A stretch of DNA of 64,000 bases from a virus (lineage: Duplodnaviria > Caudoviricetes), in the IMG/VR virus record IMGVR_UViG_3300031857_000001; one strand, 5' to 3'. The notes below the pieces were generated by a model. The model saw nothing but the letters and a program-made list of their open reading frames with translations. It was not told the origin of the DNA and ran no database searches. A program made the position numbers and the translations under genes. Positions 14,316 through 53,271 of this stretch are shown one piece after another (the first letter of the stretch is position 1; each line of letters begins with the position of its first letter).

Positions 14316-14696
14316 ATGAGTAATATTGATTCATATAAAAAACGATTTTATGGTTTAATGGAATCAACAATGGGTGATGTAAGACCAATTTTAAATGAAG
14401 GAGTTAATGTTGGTGGAAGAGCGTCAACTATAAATCCTGACGGTACCGTAACTATAACAGATAAAAGTGGAAAACCAACTAAAGTGAGAATGTCACTATC
14501 AGTTGGGGGAGATATAAATGTTGTTAATATACAACCGGCTAACGGAGGATATAATATCACTGGAAAAAGTGGAATGACTCAGTTTGTTGATAACAATAAA
14601 ATATCCCAAGTAATTCAATTTGTTGACAACAATTCACCATCTGAGATTAAAAGTGGTTCTTGGTCAACCCCAAATATAAAATTAAGAAAAGTATAA
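14316..14696 (+). CDS. hypothetical protein with MESTMGDVRP leader
   Basis: Leader ends ILNE. Confidence 0.7.
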   Translation: MSNIDSYKKRFYGLMESTMGDVRPILNEGVNVGGRASTINPDGTVTITDKSGKPTKVRMSLSVGGDINVVNIQPANGGYNITGKSGMTQFVDNNKISQVIQFVDNNSPSEIKSGSWSTPNIKLRKV

Positions 14697-50474: not shown

Positions 50475-50603
50475 TTATTTTCTTCCTTGACCTTTGTAAG
50501 CTTTGGGTTTCTCTTCTTTTGGACCATACTTTCTTTTAGATTTTCCTTTTTTACGAGTACCAAAAGTTTCTTTAGACCCAACAGCACTACCTGATTTTGC
50601 CAT
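50475..50603 (-). CDS. small very basic protein (42 aa) ending YKGQGRK
   Basis: Manual translation MAKSGSAVGSKETFGTRKKGKSKRKYGPKEEKPKAYKGQGRK*; not in ORF track. Confidence 0.7.
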   Translation of the reverse strand: MAKSGSAVGSKETFGTRKKGKSKRKYGPKEEKPKAYKGQGRK

Positions 50604-50652
50604 AATTTTTATTTTTTAGATAATTTATTTATTATATAAATATTCGGGCAAC

Positions 50653-50726
50653 AAAAAAGGGGACAGTAGCGAACTTCCCCTTTTCCTGTTATGTAACATA
50701 ACGGTCCTAAGACTCCTCTTTCGAGG
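50653..50726 (-). ncRNA. candidate structured RNA with two segments antisense to 23S rRNA H69-H70
   Basis: Minus strand CCUC-GAAA-GAGG hairpin, CUUAGGACCGUUAU-GUUAC, then terminator hairpin containing GGAAGUUCGCUAC and a U6 tract. Confidence 0.6.
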
Positions 50727-50727
50727 T

Positions 50728-51258
50728 TTATTTTCCTTTAACTAAGACTAAACATCTCTTTAAATATTCCTTTGCTCTCGGAGATGGAGTATATTCATCA
50801 TCCTTAGTTTGAAGTGCTAGAACCCTTTCAATGTCCTTAACTAATTCGGTTCCATGTTCATTTTCCTTATAAAGTTCAATAACCTTATCCATTGCTTTAT
50901 GACATTCACCAGATGTTTCGTCATAGTAGTTTTTGTTTCTGAACTTATTTAAATTATTCATCATTTCATATGATAAATGAGCTCCACCATCAGTGATATC
51001 TTTAAACAATCTCAAATTATTTAAAATACCTAAAGTATCAACCATTGAATTAACACCTCTTTTTCTTTTTGTCACTCCTGGAGAATATAAATCATAATCA
51101 CCGGCTTCACCAACAAGTTCAGTTAATGGAATAGAATTGGTGGTCATACATTTTGGTTTAGATTCTTGAGTTTCTTTAGAATCCATTCCCATTTCTTCTA
51201 TCAGGTGTTGTCTGATTATTTTTCTAAGTTCACCTTCGTTTATCGTAATTCTTTTCAT
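50728..51258 (-). CDS. hypothetical protein with MKRITINEGEL leader
   Basis: TATTTAT upstream; leader ends LIEE. Confidence 0.7.
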   Translation of the reverse strand: MKRITINEGELRKIIRQHLIEEMGMDSKETQESKPKCMTTNSIPLTELVGEAGDYDLYSPGVTKRKRGVNSMVDTLGILNNLRLFKDITDGGAHLSYEMMNNLNKFRNKNYYDETSGECHKAMDKVIELYKENEHGTELVKDIERVLALQTKDDEYTPSPRAKEYLKRCLVLVKGK

Positions 51259-51858: not shown

Positions 51859-52263
51859 ATGAATAAAATTATAAGATTGACAGAATCAGATTTGAAAAGA
51901 ATTATTGAGATGGTTACCGCTCAGATGAATGAAGGTATCATATATGAAGATGAATATGGAAGTGTGGTTGAGACAGACTTTGAATCTACCGATGTTTTAA
52001 ATGAAGCCGAGTATAAGGGTAGAAAAGTGCAACTTGGTAAAATCATGCAAGGTGATATTAAAAAGTTTAAAGTTTATGTTAAGAACGACAAAGGAAAAGT
52101 TGTTAAGGTAAACTTTGGATTTGGTGGTAAGTCGGCAAAAGGAAAAAGAATGACAATCAAGAAAAATAATCCTGAAAGAAGAAAATCTTTTAGAGCGAGA
52201 CACAATTGCGACAATCCTGGGCCAAGATGGAAACCAAGATATTGGGCTTGTAGAACTTGGTAA
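51859..52263 (+). CDS. leader-bearing protein with basic RKSFRARHNC..RYWAC domain
   Basis: MNKIIRLTESDL leader; phage-type basic domain. Confidence 0.7.
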   Translation: MNKIIRLTESDLKRIIEMVTAQMNEGIIYEDEYGSVVETDFESTDVLNEAEYKGRKVQLGKIMQGDIKKFKVYVKNDKGKVVKVNFGFGGKSAKGKRMTIKKNNPERRKSFRARHNCDNPGPRWKPRYWACRTW

Positions 52264-53271
52264 TTATTTATCGTATCTTTTACGGGCGTTTTCTGTTATG
52301 AAAACAAAATCAGAGTATTTGAATGACTCAAGATTTTTTGAATTGGTGTAAGACATTGCCGACCTCAAATAATCTTTAAAGTTTTCAGTCCAACCCATTA
52401 ATGTGTATTCGACTTTATTCATCCGATGGACACCCTCGGATGTTTTAATTTTACCTCTACCCCATTTTTTCTGTACTTCTTTTGTACTCATACCTCTAAA
52501 CTTTTTGTATAAATACTTTCTCATAAACGGATACTTTTCCCAAATTTTAATTGCTCGTTCTTTGGATAATTTAAACTTACCAAACAACAGAGTGTCTGAA
52601 CATGATTCCAAAGATTTATTCAACATACCTCCTAACATTACATAGTCAGCGCCCAAAGCGAGAGCTTTAATAATGTCATCGTAATTTCTGAAGCCTCCAT
52701 CTGCGACAATTTTAGAATTATAACCCCATTGTTTTTTAATTTCAAAACATTCCTTAATTAAGGATGCCATTGGATAATGGACACCAGTATTTGCCGATGT
52801 TAAACAACCACTACCACCACCGATACCAACACGAATATATTTTACACCAATCTCGGCGAATTTTTCATATGTTTTTGGGTTGGCAATATTACCAATCATT
52901 AATTCACCATATGGGTATTGTTCCATAAACTTTTTGGATAAATTGTATAGTTTTTCCATATGACCGTTGGCAATATCAACCAGTATTTTTGGTAGTACCG
53001 AACACTTGGTATTTATTAATTTCTCAAATTCATCTAATGATATCGATTTGAAACCTGTATAAGTTGGTTCCATTCCCCTTGGATAACATAGAACCATGTT
53101 TTCTTGCCAAAAATCGATAGAACTTGTGTAATCAATAACTGTATCCATTGGTGATACCATAAGGGGTAAATGTTTAGAATCTGTCAAAATATTAATCTCA
53201 CTACGAGACGAAATTGATGAGATGGTTTCAGGAACCAATGTGATATCTTTGAAATCGAACTTTTTATCCAT
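52264..53271 (-). CDS. IMP dehydrogenase/GMP reductase family protein (no CBS domains)
   Basis: SPMDTV, VDIANGH, RVGIGGGSGC.T, ADGG......I.KALA.GADYVM.G, RGM, LRSAMSY. Confidence 0.88.
   Translation of the reverse strand: MDKKFDFKDITLVPETISSISSRSEINILTDSKHLPLMVSPMDTVIDYTSSIDFWQENMVLCYPRGMEPTYTGFKSISLDEFEKLINTKCSVLPKILVDIANGHMEKLYNLSKKFMEQYPYGELMIGNIANPKTYEKFAEIGVKYIRVGIGGGSGCLTSANTGVHYPMASLIKECFEIKKQWGYNSKIVADGGFRNYDDIIKALALGADYVMLGGMLNKSLESCSDTLLFGKFKLSKERAIKIWEKYPFMRKYLYKKFRGMSTKEVQKKWGRGKIKTSEGVHRMNKVEYTLMGWTENFKDYLRSAMSYTNSKNLESFKYSDFVFITENARKRYDK

Follow-up and report, generated by a model that had tools for sequence, protein, structure and literature searches.

The 64,000-nt stretch of viral DNA analysed here (the window) contains, in a block of minus-strand genes, a short intergenic element that raises a question: why should a phage carry the complement of two adjacent pieces of 23S rRNA helices 69 and 70, and in swapped order? 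On the plus strand, the letters at 50693-50711 are GTAACATAACGGTCCTAAG and those at 50666-50678 are GTAGCGAACTTCC; the preliminary description of the element had given its position and letters exactly to the base. On E. coli rrlH, GTAACTATAACGGTCCTAAG is 23S 1910-1929 and GTAGCGAAATTCC is 1930-1942, and the numbering given earlier was correct. The first segment matches 23S at 19 of 20 positions, with one gap opposite U1915 and 14 contiguous exact nucleotides, and the second matches at 12 of 13. The two are antisense on the minus strand, with their order swapped and 14 nt between them; the 14-nt run, the 12 of 13, the order and the spacing agree with the earlier account. E. coli and three Bacteroidota 23S genes have the same sequence over the target stretch. 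This stretch forms intersubunit bridge B2a, touches the A and P sites and is invariant across bacteria.

About 3.9 exact matches of at least 14 nt to the 5.8-kb rrn locus are expected in Markov-simulated windows. Taken alone, the exact 14-nt match to 23S does not exceed chance, and it is the comparative evidence that decides. A further match, 13 nt long, exact and in the sense direction (CCGTAACTATAAC, 23S 1908-1920 in helix 69), lies at 14446-14458 on the plus strand inside ORF 14316-14696. It is probably due to chance because seven E. coli 23S 13-mers match the window, and we dropped it as a chance-level match in a coding region.

The window has a GC content of 32% and looks like DNA of a huge phage. 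Among its genes are those for HSP70, thymidylate synthase, an Rnl1-type RNA ligase and a Tad6-like protein, along with HNH genes, and the window also contains a group I intron at 61582-61782 on the plus strand (Rfam, 75.6 bits), which is flanked on the opposite strand by HNH-domain ORFs at 60948-61439 and 61802-62395. Two of the window proteins carry type IX secretion sorting domains, and one of these, a fasciclin-domain protein, has its closest cellular relatives in MAGs of freshwater Flavobacteriales and Saprospiraceae. The sorting domains and these relatives therefore place the host in Bacteroidota. No match among cultured phages was found by near-identity DNA search or by search with the 176-aa protein encoded upstream of the element.

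The minus strand of the element refolds as the preliminary description had it, with -28 kcal/mol and z = -2.7. The order of parts is a CCUC-GAAA-GAGG hairpin, a free CUUAGGACC, an AU-rich hairpin, an A-rich linker, and a GC hairpin with a UCGCU loop followed by U6 (Table 1). The GAAA hairpin is present in the window fold, but in relatives its position holds other sequences or nothing, so that this part of the described structure is variable and often absent. The last hairpin has the GGGGA...UCCCC stem and U6 tail of an intrinsic terminator, conserved and covarying in the family; a simple consensus terminator scan missed it because its stem is bulged and its loop is long. We give the seed as UUAGGACC and the loop motif as UCGCUAC. 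Motif 1, UUAGGAYC, complements 23S G1921-A1928, and the window copy adds G1929. Motif 2 complements G1930-A1936; its exact match to 23S is 7-10 nt across the family, and the window copy reaches 12 of 13 over 1930-1942. Along the 5' strand and loop of hairpin 2, the complementarity of the window copy continues over 1910-1920 with U1915 skipped, and the usual GUUA(N) loop of this hairpin matches U1911-C1914.

Table 1. Positions of the parts of the element and of its neighbours in the window
Feature	Position	Strand	Basis or remark
176-aa ORF	50728..51258	-	upstream of element; stop codon 1 nt before hairpin 1
Hairpin 1, CCUC-GAAA-GAGG, 5' stem-loop	50715..50726	-	fold
Covariance-model match, 61.7 bits, E = 1e-11	50656..50713	-	sole strong match in window
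Motif 1, CUUAGGACC, predicted unpaired	50703..50711	-	fold; UUAGGAYC invariant in family columns
Hairpin 2, GUUAU-GUUAC-AUAAC	50688..50702	-	covarying stem; loop usually GUUA(N)
A-rich linker, AGGAAAA	50681..50687	-	A-rich in nearly all aligned relatives
Hairpin 3, terminator stem, GGGGAAGU-UCGCU-ACUGUCCCC	50659..50680	-	fold; covarying
Motif 2, UCGCUAC, in or at hairpin 3 loop	50666..50672	-	invariant columns
U6 tract, intrinsic-terminator tail, RNA end	50653..50658	-	U-run after hairpin in all relatives
TATTTAT, promoter-like motif of next gene	50636..50642	-	marks 3' boundary of unit

Relatives of the 176-aa protein in IMG/VR number 157, on contigs of up to 322 kb. Among the 80 loci kept, across which the protein is 67-96% identical, the element lies 3' of the gene in 79; the single exception, L013, has a deletion at the element site. 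Because these loci were selected through the neighbouring protein, the set is unbiased for the RNA. In its 36 distinct versions, UUAGGAYC and UCGCUAC are invariant and nearly everything else varies. A covariance model was built from the 36 versions, and helix support was scored on a model-based alignment of 43 distinct sequences. This alignment leans slightly toward structure because it was fitted to the model, and slid partners are the fairer comparison: 92% of the cells in both helices are paired, versus 40-60% with slid partners. Compensatory double changes were found in 12 of 14 pairs, and none of 500 shuffles did as well. In the helix of hairpin 2, five of seven pairs changed on both sides and 93.5% of the cells are paired; in that of hairpin 3, all seven pairs changed on both sides. 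A plain MAFFT alignment with RNAalifold recovered only the terminator and misaligned hairpin 2, and the covariance model was used instead. The conservation and covariation that the preliminary description had proposed to look for are both present. The case that would have refuted the idea, relatives with the hairpins kept and the rRNA complementarity lost, was looked for in the protein-chosen set, and the opposite was found: the stems change and covary, and the two complementary words stay the same. The element thus has the conserved unpaired seed flanked by covarying structure that characterizes a trans-acting base-pairing sRNA.

The stems contain 45 G.U pairs on the minus strand versus 12 A.C pairs, and the RNA strand is therefore the minus strand of the window. 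The orientation of the genes and the U-run after the last hairpin agree with this, as had been argued from the window alone. A decoy, one of the roles first suggested, is unlikely because the RNA is antisense to 23S.

Four complete relatives of about 300 kb have exactly one match to the covariance model apiece, and 141 sampled Flavobacteriales genomes have none; the element is restricted to phage contigs. Rfam 15 at gathering thresholds has no family match at the element, the best being unrelated microRNA and sRNA models at 17 bits (E = 0.4). From these data we are virtually certain that the element is a real, conserved, single-copy structured phage RNA. A weak second match in the window (52277-52320, plus strand, 20 bits, E = 0.014) is a GUUA-loop hairpin at the 3' end of ORF 51859-52263. 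It lacks both rRNA-complementary motifs and resembles hairpin 2 only.

Several of the retrieval scans fixed part of the motifs, and invariance in these is by construction; the sets unbiased for motif 1 are the protein-chosen one and one anchored on motif 2 and the terminator only. The latter scan gave exact motif 1 at 54 of 67 newly fetched distinct sites. Of the other 13 sites, 12 have a one-base variant: seven have UUAGGGCC, one UUAGGACU, three CUAGGACC with the mismatch at the end, and one UUUGGACC. In eight of these 12 variants the change (A to G opposite U, or C to U opposite G) still allows a wobble pair with the rRNA, and the motif 1 variants UUAGGAUC, UUAGGGCC and UUAGGACU are all wobble-compatible with the 23S target. 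Substitutions in motif 1 thus appear mostly wobble-compatible, with few independent events: three of the five substitution types are of this kind, which gives P ~0.035 under uniform substitution and no significance when the null allows transitions only. All sets pooled contain at least 158 distinct elements at no fewer than 279 loci. Variation is seen freely at the base 5' of the seed. Structure prevails over complementarity where the two conflict: the G opposite C1920 becomes A jointly with its hairpin partner.

Strict conservation covers only 8 + 7 nt, so other RNAs with these words could be targets. The element might then be an sRNA that acts on host or phage mRNAs, on another stable RNA or in an rDNA R-loop, with the 23S match being secondary. 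A seed, an A-rich linker and a terminator make up an ordinary trans-acting sRNA, and several targets are usual for short seeds. The arrangement of the two motifs on the rRNA speaks against this explanation. A random 8-mer and 7-mer would both complement the rrn operon within 10 nt of each other with P ~1-2 x 10^-4, and the side-by-side pairing of both motifs on 23S is beyond chance. When the window was searched for complements of both motifs together, no second site was found. The match also extends along 23S to 21-34 nt in longer members. The complementarity of the element at locus L176 to 23S is perfect over 21 of 21 nt, and some members from a scan anchored on motif 1 are perfect antisense, over 19-21 nt, to 23S 1908-1929. 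A BLAST search of a relative's element against cultured phages matched only true 23S contaminants, which confirmed the 21-nt identity. Both GC-poor and GC-rich contigs carry the element, evidently in different hosts, and a universal target fits this better than a host-specific mRNA. We consider another principal target unlikely.

The long matches can be read in a second way. The element may be an antisense piece of 23S that was captured and reused as a terminator or RNA-stability element, its complementarity inherited and unused. Members with 21-34 nt of near-perfect antisense do resemble captured rDNA, and the element always ends in a terminator hairpin and lies at gene ends. Terminators need no invariant bases in loop or linker, yet here the stems drift and covary and the unpaired bases complementary to rRNA are fixed. 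There is one copy per 300-kb genome, versus many terminators in such a genome. The motif 1-anchored scan also brought up a subfamily in which a UCGCUAY hairpin is followed by a separate terminator; thus the motif 2 hairpin is more than a terminator.

A scan for the unpermuted junction bears on the same point. It gave 23 loci, of which just two are true rDNA. In this collinear family, at least 14 distinct phage sequences have GA(A/G)UUUCGCUAUCUUAGGACCGUUAUAG, antisense to 23S 1914-1941, and then a terminator (loci L317, L325 and L436-L456, e.g. L325:11751-11870). The block of about 28 nt lies between same-strand ORFs on GC-richer phage contigs, with flanks unrelated to rRNA. The search pattern fixed 20 of its bases; the five bases before and four after the pattern, which were free, are conserved and match the rRNA up to an A/G polymorphism, and the match mostly stops within a few further bases. 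One difference from the rRNA complement is fixed (U opposite G1930) and one position is polymorphic (A or G opposite U1939), both wobble-compatible. The permuted order stressed in the preliminary description is real in the window copy but not essential, because the sister family is collinear. That two architectures in different phage groups keep the same rRNA stretch appears hard to explain unless the complementarity is selected. Taken with the conserved flanking bases of the collinear family, this leaves an unused rDNA remnant as an improbable account of the element.

Two other kinds of sequence came up in the scans. At L441 (IMGVR_UViG_3300025120_005362), a 41-nt antisense match to 23S (CTTACCCGACAAGAAATTTCGCTACCTTAGGACCGTTA) is followed by divergence with no obvious terminator; this stretch may be a third form or a recent capture. 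The unrelated viral contigs L289, L290, L316, L334 and L347 contain tandem repeats, with GTTAGGACC repeated and TTAGGACCGTTTAAATTG repeated at least five times, which look iteron-like and not sRNA-like.

The scan of IMG/VR that required both motifs found the element on at least 120 contigs. Among the matches listed, about two thirds of these contigs do not have the 176-aa gene next to the element; the gene adjoins it in huge-phage relatives and not in other phage groups. The elements without this neighbour lie 3' of ribonucleotide reductase, of a T4 gp19-like tail tube gene and of many others. The element is therefore an independent module. At 18 loci (L169, L173, L197, L227, L245 and others), the stop codon of a class I ribonucleotide reductase large subunit, whose gene ends ...C-x-x-C-D-G, is 27-36 nt before the element. 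The 176-aa protein has no match in Pfam, PHROG or NCBIfam and only viral hypothetical proteins as atlas matches; its AlphaFold model is poor (pLDDT 53), too low for a fold search. Directly after the element in the window, at 50475-50603 on the minus strand, is a very basic 42-aa ORF, MAKSGSAVGSKETFGTRKKGKSKRKYGPKEEKPKAYKGQGRK, for which no family or solved relative was found. Some of the relatives likewise have, 3' of the element, an ORF with the same Met-Ala-Lys-Ser start.

In huge phages the element is closely linked to the 176-aa gene, which would suit an RNA that binds a phage protein, such as the 176-aa product, and some features recall a partial tRNA mimic. AACGG...CCGUU can, in some relatives, form a stem that closes AUUAGGA as a 7-nt loop like that of an anticodon; a hairpin resembling a variable arm comes next, and the last loop, GUUCGCUAC, is T-loop-like. 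However, the upstream AACGG is missing from the window and most members, the acceptor and D arms are absent, and ARAGORN finds no tRNA in the window. The would-be T-loop has C at the invariant A58, and many members have AUCGCUAC there. As for a protein partner encoded alongside, the element follows reductase, tail-tube and many other genes in places with no 176-aa gene. A protein-binding or tRNA-like module is very improbable on these grounds.

The target stretch overlaps the I-CeuI recognition sequence and the hotspot of LSU group I introns, and HNH genes and a group I intron are present elsewhere in the window. The element could thus be a site acting as DNA, that is, a remnant or mimic of an I-CeuI-type homing site, of the 23S intron hotspot, or of an rDNA attachment site. 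The overlap with the I-CeuI site had been pointed out in the preliminary description; as a mechanism it is unsupported. With its halves permuted, the endonuclease site at LSU 1923-1931 is destroyed, no intron model of Rfam matches near 50.7 kb and no intron core is near the element, and the genes tested around the element have no endonuclease or integrase domain. The covariation is of the RNA type, with G.U pairs on one strand, and the conserved differences from the rRNA are of the wobble type, which is relevant to RNA pairing only. We give this explanation almost no weight.

Several more specific identities were rejected. An internal guide sequence of an intron would be collinear antisense with an intron core. 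An RNase P external guide or an H/ACA pocket has the opposite order of arms. A splint for the phage RNA ligase does not suit the window type, in which the complementarity is discontinuous. An attP for integration into rDNA was dropped as well. A guide RNA would have box C (RUGAUGA) and box D (CUGA), or else an ACA box 3 nt from its 3' end together with a pseudouridylation pocket. Reading the sequence directly for C/D and H/ACA boxes, we found no UGAUGA and an RNA that ends in a U-run, and no snoRNA model of Rfam matched.

The RNA would be a product of about 60-90 nt of a single-copy gene on the window minus strand, derived from the 3' end of the 176-aa mRNA or started within the end of that gene. 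TATTTAT occurs 3' of the element in relatives as it does in the window, and also directly 5' of stand-alone copies. In seven stand-alone relatives it immediately precedes hairpin 1, at 35-43 nt upstream from the seed; three of the seven have the 176-aa gene on the opposite strand, at a distance of 1.3-1.9 kb. Its recurrence before genes and before stand-alone elements suggests that TATTTAT(A) is probably the phage group's own promoter. In the window the sole upstream candidate is TATTTAA within the ORF end, so the window RNA may instead be an mRNA 3' end. Contigs of public lake and river RNA libraries cover both flanking genes, and none of them spans the element. In a marine metatranscriptome, one 67-nt contig lies over the terminator part of a relative, at a depth above that of its neighbours; it is the sole hint of expression of the element. 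These RNA-library data are contigs, so that ends and strands are not readable from them.

The duplex prediction proposed in the preliminary description was made by cofolding. RNAduplex against whole 23S gave unrealistically long duplexes, and cofolding compared with shuffles was used instead. The window RNA with 23S 1890-1975 gains -22.3 kcal/mol after both self-structures are paid for, versus -6.3 +/- 3.1 kcal/mol for shuffles, none of 200 being as good. Other members of the family gain -8.5 to -21.7 kcal/mol. The predicted duplex, which is that of the window copy only, spans G1910-G1929 and leaves U1915 bulged. The E. coli base at 1915 is m3-pseudouridine, which is incapable of a Watson-Crick pair; the helix 69 loop is modified at Psi1911, m3Psi1915 and Psi1917.

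We favour, with moderate confidence and from comparative sequence data, the view that the element is a phage sRNA acting in trans by base-pairing with the 23S of free 50S subunits or assembly intermediates. Its layout is a variable 5' hairpin, the unpaired seed UUAGGAYC, a covarying GUUA-capped hairpin, the A-rich linker, and a terminator hairpin showing UCGCUAC. The seed and the loop would pair in trans with the adjacent 23S pieces 1921-1928 and 1930-1936, of which the first forms the 3' strand of helix 69 and the second begins helix 70. The seed would nucleate, and the weak hairpin 2 would then be opened by strand invasion to give, in the window copy, a duplex of about 20 bp that reaches G1910. 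Seven more pairs, beyond G1929, could be contributed by the terminator loop. In the mature ribosome 1921-1924 are in the helix 69 stem and 1930-1936 in helix 70. Because the target bases are paired or buried at bridge B2a in 70S, binding is expected on free 50S or, more easily, on late pre-50S particles or nascent 23S. Helices 68-71 fold last in late assembly intermediates, which seem the easiest target. The RNA would then be expected to block the folding of helices 69-70 or the joining of subunits, to form a duplex cleavable by nuclease, or to shield the site. MazF-mt6 cleaves 50S and not 70S, which shows that helix/loop 70 can be reached in free 50S subunits and not in 70S ribosomes (PMC5408214).

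The element can be compared with several known systems. In CopA/CopT of plasmid R1 and RNA I/RNA II of ColE1, complementary bases likewise lie in hairpin loops and an adjacent unpaired stretch. Hairpin 2 at loci L175 and L176 is an exact antisense of helix 69, a classic substrate for a kissing complex followed by strand invasion. Unlike the phage element, which would act in trans on a presumed rRNA target with its pieces permuted in the window type, CopA and RNA I are encoded opposite their targets, an mRNA or a primer. The window and the four complete relatives have no rRNA gene, and the sole Rfam match in the window is the group I intron. A pair of short antisense elements directed at conserved rRNA, with a base (here G1929) left unpaired between the duplexes, is also found in the C/D and H/ACA sno/sRNAs of eukaryotes and archaea; the phage element, however, has no boxes and no known partner enzyme, and the order of its arms is the reverse of that in an H/ACA pocket. 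Modification of helix 69 in bacteria is carried out by protein-only enzymes. With trans-acting, 3'-UTR-derived and phage sRNAs the element shares its size, a 5' hairpin, an unpaired seed, an A-rich linker and an intrinsic terminator, and also a position at a gene 3' end or, in some relatives, behind a promoter-like motif. Known sRNAs of these kinds, of which the phage ones are reviewed in PMC12197685, target mRNAs or sponge other sRNAs, whereas this element has a second conserved seed in its terminator loop. According to the article that cites it, E. coli growth is inhibited by a synthetic PNA directed at helix 69 (Kulik et al. 2017, cited in PMC7038079), so that an antisense oligomer at this helix can impair bacterial growth. 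The PNA shares its target helix with the phage RNA but is a short man-made molecule of another chemistry, whereas the phage RNA would also cover the helix 69/70 junction and helix 70.

We found no description in the literature of a phage RNA that targets rRNA, and a 2025 review of phage sRNAs makes no mention of rRNA (PMC12197685); together with the empty Rfam search, this bears out, as far as these searches reach, the earlier statement that no element like this one was known. Because the family is widespread in uncultured phages and no description of it was found, we take it that the phage probably uses this RNA to bind the large ribosomal subunit of its host or a precursor of it. The element would then probably be a base-pairing sRNA with an unprecedented class of target. 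For the wider proposition, that phages of many hosts encode a dedicated sRNA against the ribosome, a natural antisense RNA that hybridizes to the universally conserved region of helices 69 and 70, the balance tips only slightly in favour.

Phages are known to reshape host translation through proteins, tRNAs and ribosomal proteins. If the proposal is true, the element would provide the first known case in bacteria of a trans-encoded RNA that targets rRNA through base-pairing. It could stop 50S maturation or 30S joining, tag nascent rRNA to be cleaved and its nucleotides recycled, or protect the site from defence toxins that cut rRNA. The target is invariant across bacteria, and one small RNA could therefore work in any host, which fits the spread of the element over unrelated phage groups. 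Should the RNA not bind, a widespread, strongly conserved and undescribed family of structured phage RNAs would still need explaining. If it does bind, it would represent a new mechanism of host takeover or counter-defence, and it would offer both a natural template for helix 69 antisense antibacterials and a probe of the exposure of this region during 50S assembly.
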